Virus record (IMG/VR): IMGVR_UViG_2860317346_000001
Location: 62,001 to 126,000 of that record
Strand: one strand, 5' to 3'
DNA: 64,000 nucleotides
From: an uncultured virus (IMG/VR IMGVR_UViG_2860317346_000001)
Lineage: Duplodnaviria; Heunggongvirae; Uroviricota; Caudoviricetes
Shown here: one piece after another, positions 23,470 through 62,117 of the stretch
How the letters are laid out: every line of letters begins with the position of its first letter
How positions within the stretch are numbered: the stretch's first letter is position 1
Translations under genes and position numbers: made by a program
The notes under the pieces: model-generated
The model's input: only the letters and a program-made list of their open reading frames with translations
The model's database searches: none
Told to the model about the DNA's origin: nothing

Positions 23470-26400
23470 TTAAAATTTACTGGAAGTGGACTGTAGTATC
23501 ACTAAAGTTTTCATGTATGTCGACACATCTTCCAGAACTTCGAAGATATTCTTGAGGTATCCATTTGAATTCTTCAAAGCATCCACAAGGCTCGTTACCG
23601 AAGTTGTGATTAGGTTTTTAACGTCGAATGCGCTTCCAGCGGCATTAGCCACGTTTTTACCGGTATCCCATAAGGCTTTAGCCCCATAAACGGGTGCCAT
23701 TATTGTTTGTTTTACATATCCTCCGAGTGCGTTAGTTTGTGCAACTCTTTGGTCTTTTGTTTTCATTACATCACGTGCAGCGAGGTATGAGTCTATACCA
23801 ATTGAAGCAGCTGTTCCGATACCAGGTATGAAATCGGCTATACCACTTGCAACCTCTAAACCTGCACCGAAGTAATCACCTTCCATACCACGTTGAACCG
23901 CACCTATTCCATTGAATACGGCACCGACAACTGGTAATGATTTAAGACCAACTTTACCAATAGCTTTAGCGGTATCTTTACCCAAAACACCGGACGCGAG
24001 GTTTCGTACACTTTTAATTTTACTTAGCAATCCACCTGCGGCTAAACCCATGTAGGCGTCACCTGTTTGGCTTCTGGCTGAAGTAAGTGTTTCGTTCAGT
24101 GTATTAGATTCTGTATCCTCAGTTGATGACGCATTAACTGTAGTTAATGCGAGTAAACCGGCCATTCCACCCATGAGAAGTTTTTGTCTAAGACCTTTAC
24201 CTAGTTTAGAACCAGTAGTAGCTCCGTCAACAGCGTTAGCTAAACGTTTACCAATACCGGTTTTACCGGCAAGGTTCTGTACACCTTTACCCACACCATT
24301 CTGGTAGAAATCATCAAATACACCAGCTACGGCGTTACCAGCTTTACCAAGTGGATCTCCTAATAAATTACCAATCACAGCTGTAGGTTTTTGGAATATT
24401 TTACCGATACCACCAAGCGGTTTTTCAAACACACTACCGATTTTACCAAGTGGACCTTCTAACAAACCGCCAACCATGGCTGCAGGTTTCTGGAATACTT
24501 TACCGATGTTTCCGATGTTACCCAGTATTTTACTCGTTTTATTGAGTGTTTGTGAGCCACCAGTTCCACCAGTTCCACCCGTTCCACCGGTTTTACCTGA
24601 GATTAAACCTTTTACGGTTTTATATGCCGAGTACAACCCACCGATGCCTAGAATACCACTAGCAACCATACCGGCTTTACCGTAGTTGTTTGAATTGTTC
24701 CAGTTATTTACGATACCACCATCTGATGTTGATGGTGTTGTTGATAACTCGACGAAATCGCTACTTAAAGCACCAAAGTTTTTAATTGGAACTAAACCAG
24801 CTGTATTGTTTGTATCATCTGATGATGGACCATTAAGAAGTGAACCGCCTAAATTAGCTAACATACCTACGGCATATAACGGTAAACCAAACTTACCAGC
24901 TTTACCGCTACCTCCAGCAACCATAGCGGCGAGCCCAGCACTCGATACAACCGAACCCAGTGATAGTCCATTGTTAGTTACCTGGTCAACTGTATTCATC
25001 GCAGCAAATCCTGTAGCCGCGCCCTTAAGTGCACCGTATTTACTCGAGCTCATCATACCGAGTTGTGAACCCATCATCATACCACTGAAAGCCATATCAC
25101 CGATACCGTATTGTGCTAACGATTCACCGAGAAGTGACGGTATAATCATCGACAGTGCGGTCGTAGCTACATAACCGCCGAGCTGGCGTTTATAAAACTT
25201 CCTTTCGGATGAAAGGTCATCACCGTAATCAATGTGTGGTGTTGTAGTTGTTTGTTTTTTAGAGTCACCGAATATACGCGCTTTCCATGATTTTTTGGTC
25301 GTGGATTCCTGTGTCGGTATAGGTACTACGGTTGTATTAGCACCAGCGTTTACCTGCTTTTTCGAGTAGCGTTCTTTAGCTGCAACCGATGATACCGGTT
25401 CGTTTTTATTTATAGTAGTACCCGCAGCTATCGGGTCAATCTGTTTTTTAACGTTTATGTTTTTGGCTTCAATATTTTCAACTTTACTGAACGGTAGAAC
25501 ACCTGTAAGCATTCCGAGACCGGAAGCAGCTACGTTTTTAGTTTTCTGCCACATACTTGTTTTAGCAACATTACCACCAGAATTTAAATTTCCACCGGTC
25601 AATGTGTTAAATGTATTAGCTGCTGCACCAAATACTGCACGTTTACCGGTTGCAAGGTAAGCACCTATACGTTCAAGTAACCAGACCGATTTAGCACCTA
25701 GACCAGCTAACCTAGCGAAACCAAGCTGAGCAATACCGATAAGTGATACTGAAGCTTCGACCATCTGCATAGCATAACCTGCACGACCACCCATTTCAAC
25801 CTGTTTAAGGATTGCACCGAGTTCTTTGAAGTTGCTACCAGTTGACGCAGCTGTAGTTCCACCGTTATCGGTATCAACGTTTTCAATTGATGTGTAAGCG
25901 ATACCCATCGCTTCAGCAGCTCTTATGTATAAACCCTGCATCTGCCCCATAGCAGCTTCGTATACGTTACTGTTACCTTGAGCAACCGTAATAACATCTG
26001 TATCAAGCTTACCTTGGTAGAACGCTTCGATTTCACGTGAGTAATCGAGTAATCTGTTGGTTTCAACATTCGTACCCGTTAAACTTACAATTGTTACAAC
26101 GCTGTTGTACAATGCAGCTAAGAAATCTACCATTAAACCCGTGTTAAGTTTAATCGCGTCCATAGGTTCCGCTAATGCAGCTGATTCCAAACCGAAATTT
26201 TCATCAACAATCGCACGAGCCTTTGTACCCTGTTGTGCTGCGAATAGTTTTTCAAGTTCACCGTCACCTAAGTTAGGGTATAGCGAACGTAACGTGTCAA
26301 CGCTATCGGTGTTGTATTCACCCGAAAGGTAAACGGTTTGACCTGCGTCAGCACTTGCGTATTTAGCATACCATTCCATCAATTTAGCTTGTTCATCAAC

Positions 26401-29400
26401 ACCTTGTGTGTTCATTACGGTAAATATCGTCGGGTCCGCACGTACTAAAGCGGCGTATTCAGCCGCACTACCTTGTTTAGCTAACGTAGCAGAAGCCTGT
26501 CCTGATGCTCTAGCCATATCGAGTCCTGACGCACCATAATATGGTACCTCGAAGCCCTGTGACTTTAGCAGTTGTTCTGATAACGTACCCTCTGAGCGTC
26601 TACCCATGCTTTTCAATCCCGAAACGGATTGCCATGACCAAAGCATACCAAGGGCACCCATTAAAGGACCAATCATGGCGCTACTCATCTGCATAGCTTT
26701 TCCACCGAATAAATCAAGTGTTTTTTCAGTCGCAGTAAGTGCACCACGTACACCACTCCAAGTTTCGCTCTTGCCTTTATTTTTGTATTCGGCTTTGGTA
26801 GAGTTGTAGATTTCTCCGAATTCCGTAGTTTTCAACCACTTTGAAACTTTGTTTTTAACTGAGTTTGAAAGTGTTTCGTTCATTATGTCAGCAACGTCCT
26901 GAACTTCTGTATCTGATAAACTACCATCTTCGATTTTACTAGCAAGGCGTTCTGCTTCCGTTTTGAAACTACCTGACATTCCGCGTACGGCTTTGTTGTA
27001 TTCATCAATAGCGTCAGAACCCATGTTACCTACAGCTGTTTTGATATCGTCTGCCGATTTACGTGAAATCGTTGATTCGTCAAAGCCATCACCAAGCATT
27101 TTAGCAACGTGACCGCGTGCAGTTTTTAGGTCTTCACCAGATAAATTACCATCAGCATTATGGACGAGTTTCATTATCTTTTTAGTCATAGTTTCGTTAG
27201 TATCGGTGTTATCGTCCAATACCAAGTCTTCTACATTCGTAGTTTTCGTCTGTGAGTAATCACGTACCATCTGAGCAAATTCTGCTCTACTAACACGTTT
27301 ATTATCACCAACGCCACCTTTTAAGCGCTTAAGGTCAGCTTTAACGTTAGCCGTTTCATCTGGGCCTGACTGAATACGTGCATCTGCACCCGCACCAAAC
27401 AATTCACTACCAACCATACCACGCATGACGGTTTTGACGTTTTCGATACGTTTCTGCTCACGACCTACCTCAGCTTCGTTTATTCCAGCTACTTTCTCGA
27501 ACTTAGTGCTTCCCGGTTCATCGAATTTACGGTCAAACACGTATTCCAAGCTATCCATGATACCTTTTGGTGCTGGTACGTTCGCGTTGTTTAAAACGTG
27601 TGAAAGTACAGACATCATCGAATATCTCTGAACTTCTTGCATGTTGTCGTTTACAAGATTCAGGACGCTGTTCTGTAAGTATTCCGGTAAGTTAGCCATA
27701 GGTAAGTTCTGTGTCAATACACCCTGGTTTCTCATTATCTGTTTGTATTGTTTAATTTTCGATAACGAATCCATTGTACGTTGTATTGAATCGTATTTCA
27801 TTTTAGCCGCGTAATCCCAGTCGGTTGAGAATAACGCTTTGTCGGTGACTCTAGTTACACCATAACCCTCAACATTAAAGGTGTAAGCTCCAGCGTTGTG
27901 ACCTATAATTTTATCGAGACCTTCAAAGTCTTGCATTTTAGCCATAGCTTCGGGTGCAACACCTGCACTAGCTGACATTTTACCAAGTTCAAGAACCATA
28001 GCAGCTGTAGCGTACGGGTTACCTGATAAAGTTGCTGCGTAAGTTGAAACCATTCCACGGGTACCTGTATCGAGAACTTTTACAAGTTTACCAACGTTAT
28101 CCGTAATAGCGGCATACGCATCACGAGCTTCTGGTGATGTGTTATCGTCATTTAATGCTGTTTCAGCTTCGGTTGCGATTTCTTTCTGCCTTTCTTTAAC
28201 GGTAGCAACATCGAAGATGTTTTCAACAATGTCAGCGACAGCTTTTTGTGTAGCATTACTTGTTTTATCAAGATTTTGTACCTGTAAGTACGATTTCGTA
28301 GCGTAAGTTTCCAACATCGACGCTGTACTTGCACGGTTTAGATTATTACGTAAGTAATCAGCCATTGATAAACCCGCTAAAAGTTTAGCGTCTTTACCAC
28401 CGGAAGCACCTTCCATACGTTTTATTACTTCTTCGTTTAATTCGGAAGTATTTTTCTTAGCTAATTCGTGTAAGTCGTCAAACACGAAATTTAACGTGGA
28501 ATGCATAGATTTGAGGTCTTTATTGAATATATTTGTTATATACCCAGACGCGGAGTCGATTGCACGTTTAAATCTATCTAATGATTGGTACGAACCAACG
28601 TTAGATTTAGGATTGTAAACAGCTAAACCGTTTTTACTTTCATGGATTGCTAACGAATCATTTACATCGTATAAGTTGTTCGTAAACTCGTCACTCATTA
28701 ATTTTCTCGCATCTTTGTCTTTTATTCCTTTCTTTATCGCTATGAGACCGAGTTCTTTAACGTCGTCATTCGTAAGTTTACCGTATTTTAATTTACGTTC
28801 ACTTATCATTTCGATGAAGCTGTCATATACACCGGATTCAACACCGAGATTTCTTTCGGAAGAGTCACTGAATGTTTTCAACATAGCAACGGCACCACGA
28901 ACACTCTCAACTGAACGTAAACGGTCACCGTTATTCAAAGTTTTTTCAAATAACTGTTTGAATGCACCGTATTCCATTCCACGGAAATCGTACATATTTG
29001 ATACGAGGTCTATGAAATTCTTATCAGTATCAGGTATACGGTTCTTGTATGTTTCTGTGAACGGTGTACCTTTGACGATTGTCCGTATTACAGCTTTAGC
29101 GGTATCAAGTGCACCACCTGTGTTACCACCTGCAAATTCCACACCGTCGCCGAGTTCATCCCTATGCGTTTTGACATATTCGTGTGCATCTGCACGGTCA
29201 ACCACTGTAACGTCGCCTGTAACTCTATCGCGGAATACCATATGACTTGAAGTCTGGTTTTTCCATTCGTTGGCTCCGTGGAATTTGTTGCCCGCATCAG
29301 TTGCGTGTGTATTATCGTTAACGTACGCGCCAGTTATTTTGAAACCTTGTTCACGTAACTGCTTGATTACTTCGGAATTAGGTAATCCTTTTTTATCACC

Positions 29401-32400
29401 TACACCGTGTGATTCAAACACTGTATCAGCACCACGGGATGCAACCGTACCAATTAATATGTGTCGACCCGAACCCTTGTCATGATTACCACTTATAAGC
29501 GGAACCCAATTAGCGTCGTTACCATCGTAATTGTCACCACCGTTAAGCTCGTACATTACATTCATCATGTTTACGTCGGTAGCCGAATCAAACATGTCAC
29601 CTTTCATGAGTACTTTTTCAGGTAAGGTCTTTCTGTAGCGTTTTATTTCTTCGATATAATTTGATTCATCACCACTTGGTCTGAAGTGTTTATCACTTAC
29701 GACATATTCACCGGGCATGGTCTGTAAGCTTCCACGAGCTCTAGCTAACGCAACACCTTTTTGCGCCGCACGGATTTGTTCTTCCGATACGAAGCCTAAT
29801 GAGTTGATAGTTTCAGCATCCACACCAAATTCATCAGCTATCTGAGCGTTGAACGCTTTCATAGCATCACGTGGTGTCATTCTGAGTACCGGAACCTGTT
29901 TACCACCAACATCTACTTTACTTGATGTAAATGCGCGTAACTGTTCTTTCATTTTACTCATGTAGTTAATTAGTGTAGCTTTATCCTTAGTACCTTTCAC
30001 GTTTTCAAGCGTTGATGTACCAGCAAATTCTAACTGAATAGCTTCATCATCTAAAGCATTACCGTTTTCGTCAAACCTGTTTTTGAGTATCGCAACAGCA
30101 CCATCATCACGTATATCTATGGATTCTGATGCGGCCATATTAGCTACAGCACCAATAATGCTCTGTAACGCCGTAATGTTTGCTGTGTCGTCTCCACCTA
30201 ACATATTGGTTATGTTATCGATGTCTTCTTTTCCAACACCCAACTCTTTCTCGATATCGTCATAGCTAACATTACCATCTTTGTTGTAGTATTCGTTCTT
30301 TTTAGCGTAGATTAATTCGTTTGCGAAATCAACCATCATGCCGATTTTTTCGTCATAGGTTGCACGTTTTTGGGTATTGGTATCGGTAGCGATAAGGTCC
30401 TGGAATTTTTTACCTAAAACCTTAAACAACGCAGCCGTACCTTCAGAAAATTCTTCTGATTTGAAGTGCGCTTTGTTGAATCCGGCTGATAACACATCAC
30501 CGTTAACGTCTTTAATCTCACCGTAACTCATAGCGTTTAAGAATTCATCGTATGAACCGAATTGTGAATCTTTACCGTTACTGTACAACCGAGCGACCTT
30601 GTTCATGTCAGCTGTATCATCAGTTACGAAACCTTTAGCGGAGTCTTTAACCGAATCGAAAGCTACAGCGTCGTACGTTGAACCGTTTCTTATTGCGGAC
30701 AGATATCTATCTGCAATCTGTACAGCCGGAATTCTTGACATTCTACCGTATGGTGCGGTTGATAATAAGCCACTTTCATCGTTGAAACGTAGTGTCGCCA
30801 TACCAGATTTCTTGAACACACCGTACCTATGTACATCCGCGAGTGCGTTTAATGCGTGGTTAACTTTAACCGCAGTTGCTGTATCAGCTTCCGACATACC
30901 TTTACCGTGTGTATTTAATTTATTACTCCACACTTCGTATGTCCCTTCTAAATATTCGTGTGCTTCATCAAGTTTATCAGCGTTGACTAAACTTTGAACC
31001 GTGGTAATAACCTCGTTTATGGATTCACTCGTGGCACCAGTTGCTAAGGCTGCAGCAGGTATAGTTGTAGGTTCAATGGCCCTAATGTTCGCTTTAAGTG
31101 AGTTTTCATATTTTTTGTTATCCGTAAGTAAACCTTTCGTGAGTTCATCAGCAACACTGAAAATCGTATCTAAGTGTCCCTGTGTTTCATCTGATACATT
31201 CGCACGTGCAACCATGTAATCCATACGTGATTGTACGAATTCGTTTACGTAAGCCATCAGATTTGAATAAATAACACTTCCACTTAATGGTGTGTCGGAT
31301 TGTAGCGCTTCGTCAAATTTACCAAACGATTCCATAACGTTATTTGCTATCGAGAACAGGTTTACGCCATCTTCACCTTTACCTAAATTCTTCAGGTAAG
31401 CCATTGATTTTTGTAATTTTTCTTTCTGTTCAGCGCTAACGTCAACATCAGCCAACCGTAAATTATTACGTAAAGCTTTATTGAATACCGTATTTTTCGT
31501 TGCGTTATAGTTTGAACCTTTGAGTAACAGGTAATCCATTACGTTGCCGTAAGTGTTTCTGAAATGACCTGATGCGTCACCACTAACGTTTTTATTACCG
31601 TTTAGCGTTGTGAGTAATTCTGACATCTCAGCTGCTTCACGTAAGTTTTCGGGTATCATCGAATACATACTACCTTTATTGTACGTAGTTACCATGTTAC
31701 TGTGTGAAACCTTATGTGGTACAACTTTAGAACCCTTTTCGGTGTTTTCTAACCTAAACCCAAACAAATAGCCCATTAAATCATCAGCGTTAACCGTAGA
31801 CATGTGTGCTAAATTTAAATTTGCACCATCACGTGTTGTACCTTTGATGAAATTTACGATATCGTTCGTTACTCTACCACTTTTAGCGTCGAGCATTCCT
31901 GCTTGTAAACTTACAAGTTTTGAACGTAACTTATCGGTATTTGTAGCATCTTCACTCGTATTGAGTACCGCTTGTTGGAATTTTTTAAGGTCATCTTCAG
32001 TTAAATCGAAACCGTAACCGAAATTGCTTATGTTTTTAGTTGATTTAGCAACCATGTTTTTCATTCTGCTGAGTTCTGAAACTACAGCAATCATGTTAGG
32101 TTTTCTTTCCGTGAATGATAAGTTCTTATCTAACCCAGCAATAGCTGTACCGACACCGAATAATCTATCCATTCTGAACATATCTTCGAGTGAACTAGCT
32201 TTGTTGATTAAACCAGGAGTTTCATCATCACCAAACATAAACCTTTTAGCGTTTTCGTCACCGAGTCTAAACATATTCCTATTAGTTTGCATATCTGCAG
32301 CTGAAATCTTTTTACGGCTGTGACCGTATAACGTATCGGCTCCGTCTTCGTATTTTATCAACTTACCATCAGAATCAAACATTTCACGTTCAAATTCCTC

Positions 32401-35400
32401 TAAAGCGTTAGCCCCGTGGCCGAAATCCGCTTGGAACATTTTGTACAGTATCATGTTGTCCAAGTTTCTACGATTACCGATAATGCTACCGTATAATTCT
32501 TCATTACTGATACTAATCGCATCGTACCCGAAAGTTGAGCTAGTATTATTTGTAGTCCATTTTTTACGTAAATCATCGAGTGATAATGCGCGTGTAAACG
32601 ATTTATCGTCTGCATCGAACTTCATATCCTGATAAGCGTATTTAACGAAAGCCTTAAAGGCATCACTATTGATTTTATTACGTTCCATACGGTTAGCGCC
32701 ACGTAATATGTTTACACCGTCATCGGAAAGAGATGTTACATATTCGCTCTTAGCATAATCGTTAACTGTAACGTAGCTATCATTTCCGGCGTCATTAACC
32801 AGAAGTTTTCTATTCGAAAGGCCCTTTAATGTTTTTTTCTGACCATTATCAAATACTACAATGTTACCTTCGTTATCGGTTCCTTGTACCTTATAATGTG
32901 ACTTACCGTCAACAACTTCTTTTACAGCACCAGCTTGTAACAATCGTCTAGCGTTAGCTTCGGTTGTCGTGTATGAGAATTTCATACCGGTTGTATCGGA
33001 TAGTTTATTGAATTCATGTAATTGTTCACGCACGGTTGATGCCGATGTACCCTGTAAATCAACACTGACTCTGTACTTATCTGCTAATTCTACAGCTGAA
33101 ACACCTAAATGTTTGAATTCTGCTGTTAACATTTTGAACGAAAAGGCTAAATCTTTAAACCATGCAGACCCACGAAGTTCACTTGCGCTACTTGCTGTGT
33201 CGAAACGAGCTGAATACATTTTACGTTCTTGAGCAACTCTAAACTGTAAGTAATCGTTTGTTGTAGCTAACTCGCCATTTATAGGTACGTTTTCAAGTAA
33301 CTTTGACGCGGTAAGTCCACTTACTGAATGGTCTTGTGTATTGAACTGGAACCTTGAATCGCCAATAAATTTATTAACGTTTCTTGCCTGATTTGCGTAG
33401 TAATACCTCAACCAGTGTGGTACTTCGTACATTTTACCATCGCGCATCGAAGCCATGTTATTTTTATCAAACGAAGTCATCATAGCTTTATATGTTCCGG
33501 CTAATGAGCTTGTCATGACGTGTTTTCCGAAACCGGACGCCTGTAATGCCATAGGTAATAACATGTTAAGTTTTTCACCTGTAGCATCCATCAGTGACCT
33601 GTCGATTCTACCACCGAATGCATTACGTAATTGTGTAAAGATTATACCGCGTGTTTCCGGTGAAATACCGGCGTCGTTACTGAATAGTGTTTGGAATCTA
33701 CCATTAATACCTCGGATACTGTCGAGTAATGAACCTATAAACTCGTTATTATTTACATCACCGATACGTTCGGGGTATCCCTCTAATGTCTTATTTAAAT
33801 TATCCAAAGCGCCCCGAATTCTATCGGTATCACGCTGGCCACCACTAGCCTCACGTGAATCGCGTACGATATTATCGAATAGTGTACCGTATACGTCCAA
33901 AGCGATACGATGTGGGTCAAACGCGTTCAATCTAGGTGTATCGAGTTCGGATAATTTTGATATAATCGAGTCGAGGTGTACATTTCGTTTATCATTAGGC
34001 ACCATTCCACCTACTTCACTGTATAATAACGTACTGATGTATTTTGACATCTTTTTCATGTCATTAACGAAAGCCGCCTTTTCATCCGCGTTTTCAGGTA
34101 ATTTCATGTTCGTACCGTTGAACATTTCGTCGAGTACGTGATTAAATATACTCTGACCATCCAAGTCGAATAACTGGTACAGCATTCCGAACCTTATCGC
34201 ACCCGGTGCGTTCAAGCTGTTCGTCGCATTAAACCCAATACCTGCTAATACGCCAGATAAGAACATTTTGTCGTTGAATTTCATAACAACGTCAAAGGCG
34301 TCTTTGTTGACTAATTCGAAGGTATATAACTTGGATATAGTTTCTGCGAATTTAACGACATCACTGATATTTTCATCTTTGTAGAACTTTCTGTATAATG
34401 GTCCCATCAAATCTACAAATAAACGCGCTTTAGCTGTGTCGTTTAACCTACCCTCAGCGGTAAAGTATTCTCTGTACGCTGGGTTCTGTTCCAACATCTG
34501 ACCTAATATTACGTTGAGTTCGGATGCTACTGTTTTGAAGTTGAACAAAAATTTAACTTCGGAACTTGCACGTTCACGCATACTTTCGTCACTGAGAGCG
34601 TACTCCAATGCACTTTTCAAGTATGCACGTAATTCTGATTTACCAGCTTTATCCAATCCGCTGTATGTAAGTTGTTTCAAGTCACCATCGAACATGATAT
34701 CCGTAGGTGTAAAGAACATACGCATTAAGTCTGGTGGTGTACCTTCACCCGGTATTCCCCCTAAGTGGAATACTTTCATCGTAGCTTGAACCAAGTCACC
34801 GCCAATTTTATTTATGGCATCACTTGAATCCATGAAATCGTCGGAATCTGTCATCAAACTTAATTCTAACCAGTCATCACCTAAATTAAATTCACCTTTC
34901 TTGAAATTGGATTTCTTAGACAAATAAAGCGCGTCGTATAAGTGTCTCATCCATTTAGCGTGGTTTTCGTTGAGTATAATATCACGTGTAAGTAATCTAC
35001 GACGAACACCATCGCGGCAAGTGTGCATTACACCAGCTGGTATTTTGGCGTTTTCACCAAAGAAGCCGAGAACTTTAATATCGACGAGTTTACCGTTTTC
35101 GTATTCCTCGTAATAGAGAACTTTACCCATTTTCGTGTTTGAATCGAGTAATGTCTGAACTGACATTTCAGCTATACCTTGTACAGCGTTTATACGTTGT
35201 GATATCGTGTTTGCGGCATCATCAAGGTCACCCGCAACGAATTTTTGTTCGGCCATCTGTTTCAATAACCTTACGGACATATTTAATCCAACTAAACCAT
35301 TTATTTTGGTTGACATTGAACCGTTTTTCAAAAATACGGGAGTCGACCCTCTGTTTGCGGTGTACAACTCTTTCATTACACTACCAAACGCTTGTATAAC

Positions 35401-38400
35401 TGAATCCATCGATTTTGCATCTACGTCGTTACCAACAACCGCTTTAACCAAGTTTATGAAATTTTTGTTTGTTTCGTCGAATGATATATGCGTTCCACCA
35501 GCCGTGAAACTTACACCAAAGTCGTTCAAGAACGATTCAACGCCAGTACCACCGGTACTTGACATTACTTTTATCGTCGAGTTGTTACCATCAACTACAC
35601 GTAATGTATAATCCTTATCGAACGTAATTTTGATTTTGTTCGTGAATTCGGATTTGTTGAATATTTCGGTAAATGTGGATGCGAGTGCGTTGGTTATAGT
35701 AGCTGATTCCAGTCTGGTTACGAAAATCAAGTTACCGAATACATAATTAATGTCTTCAAGTGATGTTTTCATACCACCTTGACGTGTAACGGTCGTTATT
35801 TTCGTTTCGAAATTATGTTTACGTCCAGAATTCAAAGCTTTCATGTAATCTTTATAATTATCGAGTGTAGCGACATTTTTGTCACCTATGTTAAATCTAT
35901 CGATAATACTCTGGATATACACACCCATACCCTTGTTACCACCCAAGGTTGCAAGTTTAGGTGTCATCGTTACGATAGGTAAGCTTGTATTCAGGTTTAC
36001 ACCTTGGTGTTCTAAATTGAAACCGGTAATCATACCATACATCGATTTAGAAATGCTTATAGGCTTTCCGTCGTACTTAATTACGGTCTTATCGCCAATT
36101 ACAGGGGATATACCGTTAGCTATATCAGCTAATGTCAGAGTCCTATTAGAATCAGTGTAGAATTTGTTTTTGTTACAATTGTAGTAACCGTCGTAGTTCT
36201 CAATCGTGAATAACGCCGTATTTGGTATGGATGTTGCCATATCTTTAAGTTTAATACTGGACGTACTAGGTAAGATAGCGTCACATATACCGCGGCCGTG
36301 TTTAGCCATTTCGGTCATGATTTTCTTTTCGTTTTTACGCATAGTAGTGTCATTGTTAACTAAGATTGAATCCTCGATTGTGTGCGCGGTTCCATCCCAG
36401 AACATAACGTTTGCACCAACTTCACCACCTGTTGAAAATGCAGGTGTTACGTTAGGTCGATTACGTGTAGTTGCTAGTTTTATGTACGAACCATAACCAT
36501 CCACAATGTTCAATAATGAACCAATGATAGCTTTTTCGTGTTTAGTCAAGATGTCAATCCTAGGTTGTGAAACGGCACCCATTATACCCGCTGGACCGCT
36601 GTTAATTAAGCCCATAGGTAAAACCGGAATTAAACCATCGTGTAATTTCGATTTATTCAGCAAATCTATTGTGAATTGATTCGAACGTAAAGATAACGCG
36701 TTCACAGAATCCAATTTTACATCAGCGATATTTTCAAACAACTGAGCATAAGTTTTACCATTAATAACGTTACCGCGACCCATAACCGTCTTGTATGCTT
36801 CTTCAACAGCATTCTGCATAGATGCGTTGATACTAGCTACTACACGTTTAGCTTCGTTATCATCTTTAATGGTTCCATTTAAAGCGGATTCGAACTGGTT
36901 TATGTATTTACTTCTTACGTTTTGAACTTCATTCATCAATTCAACGTTGAATCCACGCATTAAATCCATAGCTAACTCTTTGTTAGCACCATCACGTAAT
37001 TTAACGGATAAACTTGGAATCTTTAAGTGTGGTATACGAACTTTATCAGCAACGTCTAGTTTACCGGATAACGTTGTCGGTTTAACATCATCTATATCGT
37101 TAAATACGTTAATCTCAGCACCTTTAGGTACAATGTAAACCATGTTTGACGATGTATCGATGTAAACTTGTTTCGTTTTGGTGTTGATATCGTGACCCTG
37201 CGCTTTCAAGCTTTCAATTAATTTAGCTTCGCTTGTATACGCGTCAAGTCCTAATTGAACTCTCTTACCTTTTGACTTTGAACTTAATGTCGTTGTCATA
37301 ACTTTAGCGTCTTCTGTATATTCAGCGACGCCAAATGTTCGGTTCGTAGGTTCACCCTCAACAATAAACGTTGCACCCATGGCTGACTCTTTGATTTTCT
37401 TAACAGCCGGTTGTGTAATGTCAAACAACGCTTTAACGTTTGCATCACCACTCTTTGTGTCACGTAAATATGAATAGAAATCAACCATTCGGCTATCTTT
37501 GATTTCACCTTTCGAATTCAGAATACCTTTATGTTTCAGGTCTTCCGCGTTATCAGTAATTACACGTTGTAAGGTTTCGTTAAATTTCTTATATTCAGAT
37601 TTTTTGAAATTGTAATGTTGCGAAACATCAAAATCGTATTTACCGCTACGTTTAAACACATCAACTGAATTAGCCAAAACAACAGTATCGAGAACTTTTG
37701 AAACGTATCCCGGAATCTCAACGGCTTCACCTCTAAGGATAAGACCTTCTGCCGCGGAAATCGCTAACAATGTATCGTTAATAACGTCACTTCTGAATAA
37801 CGATTTACTCGAAATACCATAGTACGATGATATGTCATTAATGATTTTATTCAATGTATCTGCATCTTTACTGATTTTAGATAGTGTAGCTGCATCGTAA
37901 TTTAATAACGCCGAGTACGCATTGTTTGTAAGAACACCAGTACGTGCACCGAGGTTAACACCAGTACGTACTAAAGCTACGTGTGAAATTGCCATGTGTA
38001 CGAATCCTTCAGGTTTTCCCCTGAGCTCTTTATACATTTGTTTAAGGCCGTAGTCGTGTTCAGCTATCTCACCGAGTGAAACAGTTTTCACAACGTCTTT
38101 TGGGTTTTTTGCCAAATTACCATTTTTATCATAACCGATGATAACGTCTTTACCTTCACTAACAACGGTTGTGTATGTCGTGAATAGTAATCTACCGAGT
38201 TTGGTTATGTCGGAACCAGCTAAATCGTTCAACGCTTGTTTTACGTCTTTATTTTTCAAGAATTTACGCGCATTTGATTTCAGTGTATTGACGTCAACGT
38301 AATCACCACAGATTTTTGCAAGTGCATCATCCGTTACGCTACCGCCCGATGCGATATATAATGATGACGCCGTACTGTAACGCTTGTACGCTTCTTCTAA

Positions 38401-40677
38401 GTCGTTTAGTGATTTTTTCTCAACGTCTTTGATGTAAGCACCTAAACCGTCTAAACTTTTCTGTATTTTCGTTTTCGGAACTGAATACTTTATGGTTTTA
38501 GCGATTTTACCAAGGTCTACGGTTTTCAAATCATCGAAGTACGCACCTACGGCTAAGAATGATACCTGTTGATTACCCGTACTTGCTACAGTTGGACCCA
38601 TGATTTCTGATAACAACTGTATCGAGTGACCTACGTAATTTATGAGTGTACGTCTACCGATTAATCGAATTAATTCAGTGTCAACACCAGGATGTGTAAA
38701 CGAGTCGATTTTCTTCAACAATACTTTTTTTACAATTTTATCCGGGTCAGCTAACATACCTTCCTCATCTTTCACCATGAGGTCGGATAATTCTTTCGTT
38801 AATTCAAGCTGTAATTTCGCGATAGCCTTATCCAGATTCTTTTGTTCCGCTTCGGTTTTTGAATCGTAGATTTCACCGTAGTAGTTATCATCTTTCAGGG
38901 TTATATGATTGAATGCGATACCTACAACATCCGCGATAAATCGTGACGTGTTCAACTTATTATCCCTAACAGCGTTAGAAACGAATTGATTTACACGTGT
39001 GTGTATTTTACGGGTCGTTGCTGTCGATGCGAGTTCGATTGTCGTGTAATCGACTATACTTATCGGACTGTTTACGCTATTACGAACGGCTTCGATACGC
39101 TTATCAACATCTTTTATTTTTGCAATCGCATTAAATTTACGTTCCATCACCGCATTACCTTTGTGTATCACTAACATATCATCAATAACCGCATCAACGG
39201 TATCAGCGTATATGAAATATGATGGGTTTTCTTTAAGCGATTTAAGTAAATCTTTTTTACGTTTGCTGAGTCTTTTGTAAACACGTACATCTATACCGTA
39301 TTTATTTACAGCTTCTTCTGACGTATCTACTGGTTTTTTAGGTGCTTTCGGGTCAGCAACTTCGTATAAATCCTTGAAGATTAACGCGGTTTGTTGTGTA
39401 ATTTCAGCTTCATGTGCGAAATTAGCTTCATGAGATAAAATACGTAACGAAGCTTCGGCTGAATTCATTTTCTGAATCGAATACCTATTACCAACAAATT
39501 TACCATTTTTGTACTCTTTATCGAGTTTCAGAACTCTAACGTTTTTATACTGCGAAATCGATGGGATAGTCCTAACGGAGTCACCATCGAAATCCGCGTT
39601 TAACGGTTTCAACAATATCGGGTTGATAATTATAGCATTTAAGTTCGGGTCCTGAATGATTTTGATTTTCTGGTCTCTGTAACCGATAGCACCTAAAATC
39701 GGATACCTCATCATAATTGATGAATCACCGTCAATTAAGTGACGTTTACAGTACGCAACCAATTTATCAGCTTTATCAGTAGGAACTGAAAATTCTACAT
39801 TATCTATTGTGAACGTACCGACACCGTTAGATGTGGTATATTTAAACGCTGTGTTTACTTTAAATTTGTAAATATCGTTTTTCTGTTCACGAACCTTGGT
39901 TGTAGCGTTAATTATTTTCGACAGTATTTTGAAGCTAGCGTCGTCACCCATAGCCTTGTACGTATCCCTTAAATCTTCAAGCTCTCTAGCGTTGAATGCT
40001 ACACTTTTCACACAACCTTGCCGTGCACTTTTCGTTGAAATGCTTTTGAAATTAACTGGTATAAGTTGGTGTGTAGCGTGTTTTAACGGGACTAGTATAG
40101 TATCTGGTGGACACAACGGGCTAGGTACAATTGTCGACATCGGAGCAGACTCAGTGGTTTCATTGTGGATTGCACGTTCACCAAGTTGACCTTTAGCCGC
40201 GGTTAAGTAGTTTAGATTATCCATAGAAAATAAATCGTCTGGTGACGGTACCTGACCGTATAAATCCAGTAAATTCTGTGAAGAATTAGCTACTTTTGAC
40301 ATGACCATATTAACATCTATGTCATCGAACGCTTTATCGTTTAGAACGAACATATCAACGTCGGCATGATTCGAAATGATTGACCTAAGTGTATTAACCC
40401 TATTCATTGTAATCGGGTCACCTTTACAACCATTTATGGCGTGTAAAAATTCCCTAAATGTTTCGAGTTGGTATAACTTAGATGATATACCCACCGTGTC
40501 GTTACGTAGAACTAAATAACCTTGGTCAAATTGAATCGAGTAATGAACGGTACCATCCAATGTGGTAGTACCGTAGCTTGATGAAAATTCGAATTTACCA
40601 AAGTCTTTCACGGTAAACATCATATCCGAAATCAATGCAACGTTGACAAACTCTCTGGATATACCAGTTTGTGCCAT
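23470..40677 (-). CDS. giant tape-measure protein fused to two-barrel (beta'/beta-like) RNA polymerase; putative virion RNAP
   Basis: ATG 40677 with GAGGTG RBS, 5,735 aa; RYP..NP..LNADFDGD (39580-39600), bridge-helix-like segment (37905-38004), EDSILVN (36355-36375), KLATLGGNKG (35929-35958); Gly/Ala-rich TMP-like C-terminus (LPVVG...GDYFGAGLEVASG...PGIGTAASIGID). Confidence 0.9.
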   Translation of the reverse strand: MAQTGISREFVNVALISDMMFTVKDFGKFEFSSSYGTTTLDGTVHYSIQFDQGYLVLRNDTVGISSKLYQLETFREFLHAINGCKGDPITMNRVNTLRSIISNHADVDMFVLNDKAFDDIDVNMVMSKVANSSQNLLDLYGQVPSPDDLFSMDNLNYLTAAKGQLGERAIHNETTESAPMSTIVPSPLCPPDTILVPLKHATHQLIPVNFKSISTKSARQGCVKSVAFNARELEDLRDTYKAMGDDASFKILSKIINATTKVREQKNDIYKFKVNTAFKYTTSNGVGTFTIDNVEFSVPTDKADKLVAYCKRHLIDGDSSIMMRYPILGAIGYRDQKIKIIQDPNLNAIIINPILLKPLNADFDGDSVRTIPSISQYKNVRVLKLDKEYKNGKFVGNRYSIQKMNSAEASLRILSHEANFAHEAEITQQTALIFKDLYEVADPKAPKKPVDTSEEAVNKYGIDVRVYKRLSKRKKDLLKSLKENPSYFIYADTVDAVIDDMLVIHKGNAVMERKFNAIAKIKDVDKRIEAVRNSVNSPISIVDYTTIELASTATTRKIHTRVNQFVSNAVRDNKLNTSRFIADVVGIAFNHITLKDDNYYGEIYDSKTEAEQKNLDKAIAKLQLELTKELSDLMVKDEEGMLADPDKIVKKVLLKKIDSFTHPGVDTELIRLIGRRTLINYVGHSIQLLSEIMGPTVASTGNQQVSFLAVGAYFDDLKTVDLGKIAKTIKYSVPKTKIQKSLDGLGAYIKDVEKKSLNDLEEAYKRYSTASSLYIASGGSVTDDALAKICGDYVDVNTLKSNARKFLKNKDVKQALNDLAGSDITKLGRLLFTTYTTVVSEGKDVIIGYDKNGNLAKNPKDVVKTVSLGEIAEHDYGLKQMYKELRGKPEGFVHMAISHVALVRTGVNLGARTGVLTNNAYSALLNYDAATLSKISKDADTLNKIINDISSYYGISSKSLFRSDVINDTLLAISAAEGLILRGEAVEIPGYVSKVLDTVVLANSVDVFKRSGKYDFDVSQHYNFKKSEYKKFNETLQRVITDNAEDLKHKGILNSKGEIKDSRMVDFYSYLRDTKSGDANVKALFDITQPAVKKIKESAMGATFIVEGEPTNRTFGVAEYTEDAKVMTTTLSSKSKGKRVQLGLDAYTSEAKLIESLKAQGHDINTKTKQVYIDTSSNMVYIVPKGAEINVFNDIDDVKPTTLSGKLDVADKVRIPHLKIPSLSVKLRDGANKELAMDLMRGFNVELMNEVQNVRSKYINQFESALNGTIKDDNEAKRVVASINASMQNAVEEAYKTVMGRGNVINGKTYAQLFENIADVKLDSVNALSLRSNQFTIDLLNKSKLHDGLIPVLPMGLINSGPAGIMGAVSQPRIDILTKHEKAIIGSLLNIVDGYGSYIKLATTRNRPNVTPAFSTGGEVGANVMFWDGTAHTIEDSILVNNDTTMRKNEKKIMTEMAKHGRGICDAILPSTSSIKLKDMATSIPNTALFTIENYDGYYNCNKNKFYTDSNRTLTLADIANGISPVIGDKTVIKYDGKPISISKSMYGMITGFNLEHQGVNLNTSLPIVTMTPKLATLGGNKGMGVYIQSIIDRFNIGDKNVATLDNYKDYMKALNSGRKHNFETKITTVTRQGGMKTSLEDINYVFGNLIFVTRLESATITNALASTFTEIFNKSEFTNKIKITFDKDYTLRVVDGNNSTIKVMSSTGGTGVESFLNDFGVSFTAGGTHISFDETNKNFINLVKAVVGNDVDAKSMDSVIQAFGSVMKELYTANRGSTPVFLKNGSMSTKINGLVGLNMSVRLLKQMAEQKFVAGDLDDAANTISQRINAVQGIAEMSVQTLLDSNTKMGKVLYYEEYENGKLVDIKVLGFFGENAKIPAGVMHTCRDGVRRRLLTRDIILNENHAKWMRHLYDALYLSKKSNFKKGEFNLGDDWLELSLMTDSDDFMDSSDAINKIGGDLVQATMKVFHLGGIPGEGTPPDLMRMFFTPTDIMFDGDLKQLTYSGLDKAGKSELRAYLKSALEYALSDESMRERASSEVKFLFNFKTVASELNVILGQMLEQNPAYREYFTAEGRLNDTAKARLFVDLMGPLYRKFYKDENISDVVKFAETISKLYTFELVNKDAFDVVMKFNDKMFLSGVLAGIGFNATNSLNAPGAIRFGMLYQLFDLDGQSIFNHVLDEMFNGTNMKLPENADEKAAFVNDMKKMSKYISTLLYSEVGGMVPNDKRNVHLDSIISKLSELDTPRLNAFDPHRIALDVYGTLFDNIVRDSREASGGQRDTDRIRGALDNLNKTLEGYPERIGDVNNNEFIGSLLDSIRGINGRFQTLFSNDAGISPETRGIIFTQLRNAFGGRIDRSLMDATGEKLNMLLPMALQASGFGKHVMTSSLAGTYKAMMTSFDKNNMASMRDGKMYEVPHWLRYYYANQARNVNKFIGDSRFQFNTQDHSVSGLTASKLLENVPINGELATTNDYLQFRVAQERKMYSARFDTASSASELRGSAWFKDLAFSFKMLTAEFKHLGVSAVELADKYRVSVDLQGTSASTVREQLHEFNKLSDTTGMKFSYTTTEANARRLLQAGAVKEVVDGKSHYKVQGTDNEGNIVVFDNGQKKTLKGLSNRKLLVNDAGNDSYVTVNDYAKSEYVTSLSDDGVNILRGANRMERNKINSDAFKAFVKYAYQDMKFDADDKSFTRALSLDDLRKKWTTNNTSSTFGYDAISISNEELYGSIIGNRRNLDNMILYKMFQADFGHGANALEEFEREMFDSDGKLIKYEDGADTLYGHSRKKISAADMQTNRNMFRLGDENAKRFMFGDDETPGLINKASSLEDMFRMDRLFGVGTAIAGLDKNLSFTERKPNMIAVVSELSRMKNMVAKSTKNISNFGYGFDLTEDDLKKFQQAVLNTSEDATNTDKLRSKLVSLQAGMLDAKSGRVTNDIVNFIKGTTRDGANLNLAHMSTVNADDLMGYLFGFRLENTEKGSKVVPHKVSHSNMVTTYNKGSMYSMIPENLREAAEMSELLTTLNGNKNVSGDASGHFRNTYGNVMDYLLLKGSNYNATKNTVFNKALRNNLRLADVDVSAEQKEKLQKSMAYLKNLGKGEDGVNLFSIANNVMESFGKFDEALQSDTPLSGSVIYSNLMAYVNEFVQSRMDYMVARANVSDETQGHLDTIFSVADELTKGLLTDNKKYENSLKANIRAIEPTTIPAAALATGATSESINEVITTVQSLVNADKLDEAHEYLEGTYEVWSNKLNTHGKGMSEADTATAVKVNHALNALADVHRYGVFKKSGMATLRFNDESGLLSTAPYGRMSRIPAVQIADRYLSAIRNGSTYDAVAFDSVKDSAKGFVTDDTADMNKVARLYSNGKDSQFGSYDEFLNAMSYGEIKDVNGDVLSAGFNKAHFKSEEFSEGTAALFKVLGKKFQDLIATDTNTQKRATYDEKIGMMVDFANELIYAKKNEYYNKDGNVSYDDIEKELGVGKEDIDNITNMLGGDDTANITALQSIIGAVANMAASESIDIRDDGAVAILKNRFDENGNALDDEAIQLEFAGTSTLENVKGTKDKATLINYMSKMKEQLRAFTSSKVDVGGKQVPVLRMTPRDAMKAFNAQIADEFGVDAETINSLGFVSEEQIRAAQKGVALARARGSLQTMPGEYVVSDKHFRPSGDESNYIEEIKRYRKTLPEKVLMKGDMFDSATDVNMMNVMYELNGGDNYDGNDANWVPLISGNHDKGSGRHILIGTVASRGADTVFESHGVGDKKGLPNSEVIKQLREQGFKITGAYVNDNTHATDAGNKFHGANEWKNQTSSHMVFRDRVTGDVTVVDRADAHEYVKTHRDELGDGVEFAGGNTGGALDTAKAVIRTIVKGTPFTETYKNRIPDTDKNFIDLVSNMYDFRGMEYGAFKQLFEKTLNNGDRLRSVESVRGAVAMLKTFSDSSERNLGVESGVYDSFIEMISERKLKYGKLTNDDVKELGLIAIKKGIKDKDARKLMSDEFTNNLYDVNDSLAIHESKNGLAVYNPKSNVGSYQSLDRFKRAIDSASGYITNIFNKDLKSMHSTLNFVFDDLHELAKKNTSELNEEVIKRMEGASGGKDAKLLAGLSMADYLRNNLNRASTASMLETYATKSYLQVQNLDKTSNATQKAVADIVENIFDVATVKERQKEIATEAETALNDDNTSPEARDAYAAITDNVGKLVKVLDTGTRGMVSTYAATLSGNPYATAAMVLELGKMSASAGVAPEAMAKMQDFEGLDKIIGHNAGAYTFNVEGYGVTRVTDKALFSTDWDYAAKMKYDSIQRTMDSLSKIKQYKQIMRNQGVLTQNLPMANLPEYLQNSVLNLVNDNMQEVQRYSMMSVLSHVLNNANVPAPKGIMDSLEYVFDRKFDEPGSTKFEKVAGINEAEVGREQKRIENVKTVMRGMVGSELFGAGADARIQSGPDETANVKADLKRLKGGVGDNKRVSRAEFAQMVRDYSQTKTTNVEDLVLDDNTDTNETMTKKIMKLVHNADGNLSGEDLKTARGHVAKMLGDGFDESTISRKSADDIKTAVGNMGSDAIDEYNKAVRGMSGSFKTEAERLASKIEDGSLSDTEVQDVADIMNETLSNSVKNKVSKWLKTTEFGEIYNSTKAEYKNKGKSETWSGVRGALTATEKTLDLFGGKAMQMSSAMIGPLMGALGMLWSWQSVSGLKSMGRRSEGTLSEQLLKSQGFEVPYYGASGLDMARASGQASATLAKQGSAAEYAALVRADPTIFTVMNTQGVDEQAKLMEWYAKYASADAGQTVYLSGEYNTDSVDTLRSLYPNLGDGELEKLFAAQQGTKARAIVDENFGLESAALAEPMDAIKLNTGLMVDFLAALYNSVVTIVSLTGTNVETNRLLDYSREIEAFYQGKLDTDVITVAQGNSNVYEAAMGQMQGLYIRAAEAMGIAYTSIENVDTDNGGTTAASTGSNFKELGAILKQVEMGGRAGYAMQMVEASVSLIGIAQLGFARLAGLGAKSVWLLERIGAYLATGKRAVFGAAANTFNTLTGGNLNSGGNVAKTSMWQKTKNVAASGLGMLTGVLPFSKVENIEAKNINVKKQIDPIAAGTTINKNEPVSSVAAKERYSKKQVNAGANTTVVPIPTQESTTKKSWKARIFGDSKKQTTTTPHIDYGDDLSSERKFYKRQLGGYVATTALSMIIPSLLGESLAQYGIGDMAFSGMMMGSQLGMMSSSKYGALKGAATGFAAMNTVDQVTNNGLSLGSVVSSAGLAAMVAGGSGKAGKFGLPLYAVGMLANLGGSLLNGPSSDDTNNTAGLVPIKNFGALSSDFVELSTTPSTSDGGIVNNWNNSNNYGKAGMVASGILGIGGLYSAYKTVKGLISGKTGGTGGTGGTGGSQTLNKTSKILGNIGNIGKVFQKPAAMVGGLLEGPLGKIGSVFEKPLGGIGKIFQKPTAVIGNLLGDPLGKAGNAVAGVFDDFYQNGVGKGVQNLAGKTGIGKRLANAVDGATTGSKLGKGLRQKLLMGGMAGLLALTTVNASSTEDTESNTLNETLTSARSQTGDAYMGLAAGGLLSKIKSVRNLASGVLGKDTAKAIGKVGLKSLPVVGAVFNGIGAVQRGMEGDYFGAGLEVASGIADFIPGIGTAASIGIDSYLAARDVMKTKDQRVAQTNALGGYVKQTIMAPVYGAKALWDTGKNVANAAGSAFDVKNLITTSVTSLVDALKNSNGYLKNIFEVLEDVSTYMKTLVILQSTSSKF

Positions 40678-40687
40678 TACTACACCT

Positions 40688-61347: not shown

Positions 61348-61399
61348 CATCATGGGTATCCGAATACAGATGGGATACATGAGTTACACTATAGTTAAG
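61348..61399 (+). promoter_or_regulatory. conserved early element copy 1 (putative viral RNAP promoter)
   Basis: CATCATgggTATCCGAATACA-N16-TACACT. Confidence 0.7.
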
Positions 61400-61423
61400 T
61401 AGAAACCTGTAGGTGATATCTCT

Positions 61424-61645
61424 ATGGATACCTTAGTAAACTTAGCTCACACAGCAAACACCACACTATTAGCGGAAGCTAATATTCGTGGGAAACTATA
61501 CCCTGGGTTCGATAAAGCGGATGGGGTTTGGTATGAACTCCAAGACGTAACAGATGACGCTTTCGGTTTAATCGAAAGTGTGCAAGCCGCAGTTTGTAAA
61601 GAAATTGCGGATTACTTCGGTGAAGAACCGATGTATAACTTCTAA
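61424..61645 (+). CDS. small early protein
   Basis: 73 aa, AGGTGAT RBS, T-tract after stop. Confidence 0.75.
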   Translation: MDTLVNLAHTANTTLLAEANIRGKLYPGFDKADGVWYELQDVTDDAFGLIESVQAAVCKEIADYFGEEPMYNF

Positions 61646-61688
61646 TTTGTTATTTTTTTCTTTTATTGATTATATCTATAAAAAAACT

Positions 61689-61746
61689 CATCATCACGAT
61701 ATACGAATACAGATTGGATTAGTTTGACTACACTGTTTTAGAGTGG
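61689..61746 (+). promoter_or_regulatory. conserved early element copy 2
   Basis: CATCATCACGATATACGAATACA-N17-TACACT. Confidence 0.8.
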
Positions 61747-61772
61747 AATAAAAACTCTATAGGTGATGTGTA

Positions 61773-61991
61773 ATGATTAACAAAATATCTAATACTATCG
61801 TAAAATTCTTCAACCAGTTAGACGCTGGTAAGAAGGGCAGAACGCCATACATGGTGTTCAAACATGGAACCATCTTGGAGGACTTAGATGGTAGATACTT
61901 TATCGTCAGAAATGACACCTACAAAGTTGTAGGTAAGTGCTCACCTGAGAACCTTAACGGTCTTATAGAACGAGCGTTAATGCTCGAATAA
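61773..61991 (+). CDS. small early protein
   Basis: 72 aa, AGGTGAT RBS, T-tract after stop. Confidence 0.75.
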   Translation: MINKISNTIVKFFNQLDAGKKGRTPYMVFKHGTILEDLDGRYFIVRNDTYKVVGKCSPENLNGLIERALMLE

Positions 61992-62040
61992 TTCTATTTT
62001 ATTTTTTTCTAACCGTAATGGTTTGTAAATAAAAAAAAAG

Positions 62041-62094: not shown

Positions 62095-62117
62095 CGATAA
62101 CCATGAGGTGATGTACA

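Follow-up and report, generated by a model that had tools for sequence, protein, structure and literature searches.

The stretch of DNA analyzed here (the window) is 64,000 nucleotides long and corresponds to bases 62001-126000 of the 174,953-bp IMG/VR record IMGVR_UViG_2860317346_000001 (GC 38%), an uncultured member of Caudoviricetes, which is placed there in the provirus class with an estimated completeness of 84%. The gene under study is a giant open reading frame (ORF) on the minus strand, whose product had been predicted to be a tape-measure protein carrying a complete two-barrel RNA polymerase (RNAP). An ORF scan showed a single open frame at 23470..40716, which would encode 5,748 amino acids (aa) from a TTG codon at 40716 and contains no internal stops. 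The coordinates and the 5,735-aa length given in the original prediction are correct, as an AGGTG sequence is found before the ATG at 40677, directly after the stop codon (40688-40690) of an upstream 737-aa ORF. Each sequence motif named in that prediction was also found at the quoted residue of the giant protein. The features of the gene, in window coordinates, are as follows.

40683..40687, minus strand: AGGTG ribosome-binding site, 5 nt 5′ of the giant-ORF ATG
23470..40677, minus strand: giant ORF, 5,735 aa from ATG 40677, stop codon 23470-23472
39574..39762, minus strand: beta′-type double-psi beta-barrel (DPBB-A), aa 306-368, Pfam RNA_pol_Rpb1_2
39580-39600, minus strand: NADFDGD metal-binding loop, aa 360-366, within the beta′-type barrel
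37903..38004, minus strand: proposed bridge-helix-like stretch, aa 892-925, statistically unsupported
35158..36603, minus strand: candidate beta-like module, aa 1359-1840, which holds the five collinear motifs of the original prediction
26881..35157, minus strand: central region, aa 1841-4599 (~2,760 aa), no recognizable domain
23473..26880, minus strand: C-terminal region, aa 4600-5735 (~1,136 aa), Gly/Ala-rich, low charge
23722..24015, minus strand: ~100-aa glycine-zipper-like motif, aa 5555-5652, phrog_23178 E 2.4e-14

The comparisons give solid support, above chance level, for a beta′-type catalytic barrel with an intact RxP...NADFDGD signature in the giant protein, which confirms the beta′-like catalytic element proposed earlier. 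The Pfam family RNA_pol_Rpb1_2 (PF00623) matched aa 306-368 with 26.7 bits, above the curated cut-off of 25.3, and in a six-frame search with the same model the barrel of the giant ORF scored 30.2 bits. The barrel was also matched by phrog_2987 (E 3.8e-6). The RxP element is contained in MRYPIL at aa 323-328, and the AEASLRIL sequence is located at aa 407-414. A phmmer search of the PDB returned only the largest subunits of RNAPs, all of them aligned to aa 310-415, including archaeal Rpo1N (E 0.012), the tape-measure chains 8h2m and 8h2n of the Thermus phage P23-45 (E 0.18-0.29), and plant Pol IV/V. When aa 1-1200 were compared exhaustively by HMMER with 1.84 billion (1.84e9) representative proteins, seven proteins were found at E <= 0.001, with only aa 253-378 matched, and Pfam identified all seven as bona fide Rpb1/A′-type RNAP subunits. 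In the resulting seven-row alignment the R and P of RxP and the D.DGD residues are invariant. The blastp comparison of the barrel with aa 727-789 of P23-45 gp96 gave 34% identity over 64 aa (E 3e-5), which was better than the comparison with E. coli beta′ (E 0.018), and the barrel also aligned to a 549-aa beta′-like protein encoded by the same virus (E 4e-5). AlphaFold modeling of aa 250-480 with the seven-row alignment gave a pLDDT of 34. Because even this Pfam-significant barrel gave such a value, failures of AlphaFold on this protein are uninformative.

The Gly/Ala-rich C-terminus, the hydrophobic helices, and the 11-residue-type repeats, which had also been predicted, were borne out by composition, window, and repeat counts. 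In windows from aa 4501 to the end Gly amounts to 10-22% and Ala to 8-13%, and 11 of the 15 hydrophobic 19-mer windows of the giant protein fall within aa 4661-5628. The pattern G[KS][IV]F[QE]KP is found at aa 5392, 5414, and 5425, with spacings of 22 and 11 residues (aa 5392-5431, positions 24385-24504), and TRF detected a GGT run at 24557-24592. The glycine-zipper-like motif at aa 5555-5652 is shared with a 962-aa metagenomic protein, P0011 (48% identity over 98 aa, E 2e-12), which was the one match in a protein search of the shorter length class. In tblastn the motif was found in 46 phage records, mostly of T4-like cyanomyoviruses, together with Acidovorax, Xanthomonas, and Stenotrophomonas phages. 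The carriers in T4-like phages are 600-740-aa proteins of the baseplate-hub gene cluster, such as the 626-aa "peptidase" PHM1_019 of P-HM1, which is encoded between gp26/gp51 and gp5 and is 45% identical to the motif over 102 aa (blastp, E 2.3e-16). These hub-cluster proteins are like the giant protein in their ~100-aa Gly-rich hydrophobic motif, while they differ from it in their length, in their M15-type peptidase annotations, and in having no RNAP. The hub cluster of T4 encodes the tail-length determinator gp29; the equivalence of the cyanophage protein to gp29 could not be shown. A weak collinear alignment (z 3.7, 2/300 shuffles) was obtained between the C-terminus of the giant protein and that of P23-45 gp96; it could be explained by composition, as both are Gly/Ala-rich. 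An ESM Atlas search with the C-terminus returned only leads below 0.9.

The reading that we favor, to which we would give an even chance, is that the giant protein is a virion protein with a two-barrel RNAP at its N-terminus and a membrane-type module at its C-terminus, that it is delivered with the viral DNA, and that it makes the virus independent of the host RNAP early in infection of a probably archaeal host. The descriptions "complete two-barrel RNAP" and "tape measure" are each supported in part. Two genes on either side of the giant ORF are as follows.

45261..46802, minus strand: terminase large subunit (TerL), located five genes upstream of the giant gene within one operon-like run, phrog_2 E 8.7e-15
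22095..23429, minus strand: 444-aa gene directly 3′ of the giant gene, weak portal candidate, NCBIfam portal_HK97

A late gene run shared with TerL and a hydrophobic Gly/Ala-rich C-terminus, as expected of tape measures though not exclusive to them, are consistent with a tape-measure role, while the family models, the gene position, and the search for a chaperone frameshift did not support it. Several observations weigh against this role. Pfam, PHROGs, and NCBIfam searches with three pieces of the giant protein found no tape-measure family, and no tail tube, sheath, chaperone, or baseplate family was recognized in the giant protein and its neighbors. The carriers of the C-terminal motif in hub clusters are annotated as peptidase, endolysin, or gpD, and not as tape measure. 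Upstream, the overlap between ORFs of 156 and 102 aa is in the +1 frame and contains no slippery heptamer, and a frameshift-chaperone signature was not found. The giant gene was not found in the position expected of a tape-measure gene, after the tube and the frameshifted chaperone and before the tail-tip/baseplate genes, which is a weak test, as the structural genes are too diverged to be named. With relaxed thresholds, Pfam and PHROG gave nothing usable for 25-30 structural proteins, and PDB sequence searches with three neighbors (444, 569, and 448 aa) gave matches at chance level only. The 444-aa protein matched portal_HK97 with E 1.1e-4 and 21.5 bits, far below the cut-off, and PHROG, Pfam, and PDB searches gave it no support. 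It is followed by the end of the strand block, and a portal candidate as the next gene would fit a head-associated protein equally well.

These observations bear on an alternative that is possible, if rather unlikely: the giant protein could be an RNAP cargo or ejection protein packaged in the capsid, comparable to N4 gp50 and the crAss-like virion RNAPs, with the hydrophobic C-terminus serving as a trans-envelope conduit and the length of the protein unrelated to the tail. In N4 and crAss-like phages, giant RNAPs are carried inside the head, and N4 gp50 is a packaged virion RNAP of the T7-like and not the two-barrel kind. The crAss-like gp66 is named a virion RNAP in the part of PMC10770324 consulted. 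The location of the giant gene between TerL and the weak portal candidate, away from recognizable tube, chaperone, or baseplate genes, fits such a cargo, and so does the lack of a tape-measure model match and of a chaperone frameshift pair. The candidate fiber or baseplate genes are also located elsewhere: proteins with RCC1, Laminin_G_3, Kelch, and DUF2341 domains, which are probably fibers or baseplate components, are encoded in a separate minus-strand block at 33-53 kb of the record (G000), 30 kb from the head/terminase block. On the other hand, the C-terminal motif is common to proteins of myovirus baseplate-hub clusters and resembles, weakly, the C-terminus of a proven tape measure, no similarity to the N4 or crAss RNAPs was detected, and no other tape-measure candidate was recognized in the 175 kb of this 84% complete record. 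We consider the odds between a tail-lumen or tape-measure role and a capsid-cargo role, both of which would be virion-delivered, to be roughly even. The tail of ~0.8 micrometer that had been calculated from the length of the protein would follow only if the entire chain acted as a ruler. The domain-repeat proteins of the separate block include an RCC1-repeat protein of 1,107 aa (L005:13460-16783, minus strand), a Laminin_G_3 protein of 1,366 aa (L006:1-4101, minus strand), and a Kelch-repeat protein of 353 aa (L006:8818-9879, minus strand).

Two further RNAP gene pairs of the same genome, which bear on whether the N-terminal part could form a two-barrel enzyme, are located just beyond the window, in record (G000) coordinates, as follows.

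60253-61239: pair 1, beta′-like, 328 aa, LDGDYDGD motif
61160-62008: pair 1, beta-like, 282 aa, GDKISNLHGQKG, Pfam Rpb2_6 25.2 bits; ends at window position 8
126885-128534: pair 2, beta′-like, 549 aa, EGDFDGD, Pfam Rpb1_2 28.6 bits; starts 885 bases past the window end
128557-129645: pair 2, beta-like, 362 aa, GVKMIGYDAQKG

In both small pairs the beta′-like gene comes first and is followed by the beta-like gene, which is the reverse of the cellular rpoB-rpoC order; the genes of pair 1 overlap by 80 nt in different frames. The DxDxD barrels of the genome thus number three, against two clear beta-like genes, both located 3′ of their beta′ partners. From parity and gene order, the giant protein would be expected to contain a third beta-type barrel, after the beta′ barrel, an argument that suggests such a barrel rather than demonstrates it. 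An alignment of the three beta-like proteins has an invariant ED, G.K......QK.T, and DSI..R...G. The motifs of the candidate beta-like module of the giant protein, which are compatible with a second, beta-type barrel at about aa 1420-1600, downstream of the beta′ barrel, are located as follows.

aa 1359-1373, minus strand: NSGPAGIMGAVSQPR, named in the original prediction
36355-36417 (aa 1421-1441), minus strand: GANVMFWDG at aa 1421-1429 and EDSILVN at aa 1435-1441
aa 1426-1441, minus strand: FWDGTAHTIEDSILVN, one of the two strongest beta-like motifs
35929-35958, minus strand: KLATLGGNKG, aa 1574-1583 (Lys 1574, Lys 1582), the other strongest beta-like motif
aa 1796-1812, minus strand: VGLNMSVRLLKQMAEQK, named in the original prediction

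When the giant protein was scanned with conserved blocks of E. coli RpoB, the ED block (FWDGTAHTIEDSILVNND) ranked first among 5,718 positions with a score of 30, the next best score being 18, and the K-x8-K block (TPKLATLGGNKGMGVY) ranked fourth among 5,720 positions. A maximum of at least 30 for the ED block was reached in 2.4% of 5,000 shuffles (p 0.024), and the two blocks in order and 30-300 residues apart were obtained in 39 of 5,000 shuffles (p 0.008); these p-values are optimistic, as the RpoB blocks were picked after the claim of beta-like motifs was known. The best match of the giant protein to the K-x8-K block of E. coli beta is HDKGSGRH, in the region of aa ~3690-3740, in which the second lysine is missing.

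The formal comparisons did not support the second barrel. The other four E. coli beta blocks (N/fork, SR, H, and GEME) failed to pick the proposed sites, no Rpb2 family was found by Pfam on aa 1359-1840, and the module had no match in a phmmer search of the PDB or, by hhalign, to the profile of the virus's own beta-like proteins. The Smith-Waterman comparison of the module with E. coli RpoB gave a z of -0.37, and a four-block chain position-specific scoring matrix gave a z of 0.16 with its peak at another place. An ESM Atlas search with aa 1300-1860 returned no usable match, and the AlphaFold model of aa 1330-1870 (pLDDT 35) was unusable as fold evidence. For the bridge helix, the proposed FVHMAISHVAL sequence was located at aa 892-902; with a two-sequence bridge-helix block this site ranked second among ~5,700 positions, yet its score was reached in 46% of shuffles, so the match that had been claimed is not above chance. 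The Pfam family Rpb1_5 (PF04998) had no match across the genome. We rejected a beta barrel on the N-terminal side of the beta′ barrel (aa 1-320, for example KSARQGCVK at aa 216-224), for which hhalign, Smith-Waterman, and block scans gave no support. Of the complete two-barrel RNAP that had been predicted, the beta′ barrel and the motif-level ED and K-x8-K resemblance stand, while Pfam, PDB, hhalign, Smith-Waterman, and chain-matrix comparisons lent it no support.

The negative results should be seen against the behavior of the virus's own 362-aa beta-like protein, which also has no Pfam match and gave a z of only 0.54 in comparison with RpoB. Because this protein escapes both comparisons, the formal beta tests have low power at such divergence. 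The 362-aa protein has one homologue, 37% identical, on a 7-kb contig, and an alignment of the two scanned against IMG/VR and JGI sequences gave no match. The C-terminal half of the 328-aa beta′-like protein (L007:7053-8039, plus strand) has a weak match to the TusE/DsrC family (NCBIfam E 8e-5, below cut-off).

It is unlikely, in our view, that the giant protein contains the beta′ barrel only, either as a partner in trans of a separate beta-like protein or as a non-catalytic relic in a multi-domain (polyvalent-type) virion protein. This explanation would agree with the negative outcome of every formal search of the giant protein for a bridge helix or another barrel, with the confinement of the matches among 1.84e9 proteins to aa 253-378, and with the presence of two stand-alone beta-like proteins in the genome. 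However, these stand-alone genes each already adjoin their own beta′-like partner, the RxP...NADFDGD signature of the giant protein is fully intact, the ED block stands out clearly where a beta-type barrel would be expected and is followed by the K-x8-K block, and the power of the formal tests is low at such divergence.

A candidate template of a virion-delivered polymerase is a cluster of repeats near the end of the window.

61349..62850, plus strand: tandem promoter-like repeats (four strong copies, one weak), CATCACGATATACGAATACA, with ACACTAT ~20 nt later

The repeats are spaced by ~345-390 nt, with a T-rich stretch before each copy, and each precedes a small plus-strand ORF with an AGGTGAT site. 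The CATCACGATATACGAATACA 20-mer is unique to this cluster within the 174,953-bp record, with up to 4 mismatches allowed (<= 4). The cluster heads the plus-strand block that holds the 549/362-aa RNAP pair. We infer that the tandem repeats are candidate promoters for an injected polymerase, in a layout that would correspond to the few pre-early promoters of P23-45 (PMC10770324). An example of a terminator-like element before a repeat is the hairpin GGGTCTAACCC followed by a T run at 62329-62363.

If the giant protein is a virion RNAP, as we favor, infection could proceed in the following way. The protein would enter the host cell from the virion along with the viral DNA. Its first ~1,900 residues would form a highly diverged two-barrel DNA-dependent RNAP, with the beta′-then-beta order of the small pairs, while the last ~1,100 residues would form a Gly/Ala-rich hydrophobic module of multiple helices, located in or at the tail channel in the manner of a tape-measure protein. 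On ejection this module could insert into the host membrane, which would hold the polymerase at the DNA entry site. The injected polymerase would then transcribe the first-entering genes from the tandem repeats at 61.35-62.85 kb of the window. These genes would include the 549/362-aa RNAP pair, which would subsequently take over, so that the virus would be independent of the host RNAP early in infection.

The comparison with known systems sets limits to this reading. All of its claims rest on a single orphan sequence: a protein homologue search with aa 1-2000 in the length class of 3,154-10,037 aa, tblastn against 50,697 phage records (E 1e-3), and searches of IMG/VR, GTDB genome contigs, and JGI metagenome contigs found no relative of the giant protein. 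Its presence in virions, its ejection, and its RNAP activity, probable as they are, are predictions from sequence, which also counts against this reading. TerL had no relative in IMG/VR. The PolB protein of this virus had 37 related loci, all at <= 30% identity, and PF00623 was absent from the four records behind PolB-related loci that were covered (4 of 37 loci).

The closest precedent is P23-45 gp96, which the consulted part of PMC10770324 describes as a virion tape-measure-fused RNAP that transcribes the pre-early genes, those for a second RNAP included, so the precedent invoked in the original prediction holds. The two proteins are similarly giant (5,002 aa in gp96 and 5,735 aa here) and their genes are situated among those for late structural proteins. 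Each carries DFDGD in an RNAP part at the N-terminus, with 8h2m/8h2n among the PDB matches, and ends in a hydrophobic Gly/Ala-rich C-terminus, and both viruses carry additional non-fused RNAP genes. The homology is, however, confined to a 64-aa barrel stretch, with the other matches at chance level (E >= 1.3), among them a weak collinear one close to the C-termini of the two proteins, and the remaining P23-45 proteins gave no credible match. The DFDGD motif is at aa 779-783 of gp96 (position from the consulted part of PMC10770324), while the corresponding motif is at aa 360-366 here. The beta-type barrel precedes beta′ in gp96, whereas here, if present, it would follow it. The tape-measure part of gp96 contains metallopeptidase and transmembrane domains; in the giant protein no peptidase family was found by Pfam and NCBIfam, and hydrophobic helices are present. 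The gp96 gene is located after the tail genes and before the tail-tip genes, in contrast to the location between TerL and the portal candidate here. The probable archaeal host and the GC content of 38% are also different from P23-45. These comparisons suggest that the giant protein works like the gp96 system and yet lies outside the gp96 family.

The crAss-like gp66 of phi14:2 is described in the consulted part of PMC10770324 as a virion RNAP, a single-chain two-barrel enzyme with beta-then-beta′ order. Both gp66 and N4 gp50 are like the giant protein in being very large, virion-packaged, and ejected for early transcription, the latter two properties being predicted here, while neither matched it in sequence (50,697 phage records, E 1e-3). 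A crAss-like identity of the virus was rejected, as it had no phage-record match and no crAss-type genes. The jumbo phages phiKZ and AR9, which have multisubunit virion and non-virion RNAPs, resemble this virus in having several RNAP sets with split beta/beta′ genes, comparable with the three DxDxD barrels in one genome here. They differ in that the small sets here are minimal (328+282 and 549+362 aa) and beta′-like first, and that the virion candidate is one fused chain, and the phage records gave no sequence match. The RNAP gene sets of AR9 make it not dependent on host RNAP, according to the consulted part of PMC5312081. The "moraphage" jumbo lineage is unrelated, as it is T4-like and without RNAP in the consulted part of PMC12619734.

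With respect to the host, several genes of the virus have archaeal features, which makes the "probable archaeal virus" of the original prediction plausible. The virus encodes an EarA-like winged helix-turn-helix protein (Pfam E 3e-22), an Hjc-like nuclease, and a 209-aa protein that is extended at its N-terminus and has a histone fold of the archaeal type (E 6e-14; with archaea_histone of NCBIfam it scored 41 bits, below the cut-off of 50). Among 14 control genomes the EarA family was found in two and the histone family in three, and all positive genomes were archaeal. The GGTG sequence was found upstream of 69/197 ORFs, as compared with 8/197 for GGAG; GGTG-type ribosome sites are typical of many archaea. 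The nearest matches of the RNAP barrel are Rpb1/A′-type, and Pfam scans of 150 + 30 + 30 proteins detected no peptidoglycan hydrolase family. Judging by these genes, we regard an archaeal host as likely. Two observations point the other way: scans of genome contigs for a host link, including an NrdD query, gave no match, and the closest matches of TerL and PolB, at 24-27% identity, come from bacterial as well as archaeal viruses, with annotated Streptomyces phage terminases (~25% identity in tblastn) as the matches of TerL, and T4-like cyanophages as well as haloviruses nearest to PolB. A divergent jumbo-type phage of a bacterial host, with archaeal-looking genes acquired or coincidental, which would fit these relationships, the finding of the C-terminal motif in bacterial phages, the presence of a Tad2-like anti-Thoeris domain, and the missing host genome match, is an improbable explanation in view of the EarA-like, histone-fold, and Hjc-like genes, of which the EarA and histone families were found only in archaeal genomes among the controls, the dominance of GGTGA-type ribosome sites, the Rpb1/A′-type barrel matches, and the lack of peptidoglycan hydrolase families among the scanned proteins. 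The loci of the EarA-like, histone-fold, and Hjc-like nuclease genes are G000:C1:162903-163154, G000:C1:138143-138322, and L005:7509-7949.

That this virus, which is probably archaeal, has a virion RNAP is thus plausible. Archaeal viruses are stated to encode no RNAP in the consulted parts of PMC5569661 and 10.1101/2021.07.29.453957, and a 2010 review states, in the part consulted, that non-canonical two-barrel RNAPs are apparently lacking in archaea (PMC2919709). A full-text literature search, supplements aside, found no counter-example to archaeal viruses without their own RNAP. The statement of the original prediction that no such system has been described for archaeal viruses matches these sources, as far as the consulted parts go. 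If the host is archaeal, a genome with three DxDxD barrels would break the rule that archaeal viruses encode no RNAP, potentially as the first case. A single chain with beta′-then-beta order, if true, would be a permutation of all single-chain two-barrel RNAPs known from the literature (QDE-1, YonO, crAss gp66, P23-45 gp96/gp64, and the yeast plasmid Orf6), and would give the oldest polymerase fold a new topology. To our knowledge, it is only from the Thermus phages that an RNAP in fusion with a tail or ejection protein this large has been described, and a second, unrelated fusion of this kind would mean that such an arrangement arose at least twice. A new, possibly very specific, transcription system would have a ready template in the unique tandem repeats. 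The boldest form of this proposal, which we regard as doubtful, is a transcriptionally autonomous tailed archaeal virus with three two-barrel RNAPs, one of which would be a 5,735-aa virion chain in beta′-then-beta order, fused to a tape-measure-like module independently of the Thermus fusion.

Several minor features were also observed. The central region of the giant protein (aa 1841-4599) matched no family in Pfam, PHROG, or NCBIfam at the thresholds used. At aa ~3690-3740 (window ~29460-29610) it contains a GD...GNHD spacing that resembles calcineurin-like phosphoesterase motifs; this resemblance is without Pfam support and is probably due to chance. Elsewhere in the genome, a guanylate kinase is fused to a Tad2-like (anti-Thoeris) counter-defense domain (L005:11000-11899, plus strand, Pfam E 8e-16). 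A nicotinamide phosphoribosyltransferase extends over two plus-strand ORFs, L009:5792-6667 and 6689-7300, of which the first contains NAMPT_N and the start of NAPRTase and the second the rest of NAPRTase; the interruption may reflect gene splitting, a frameshift, or an error in the sequence.

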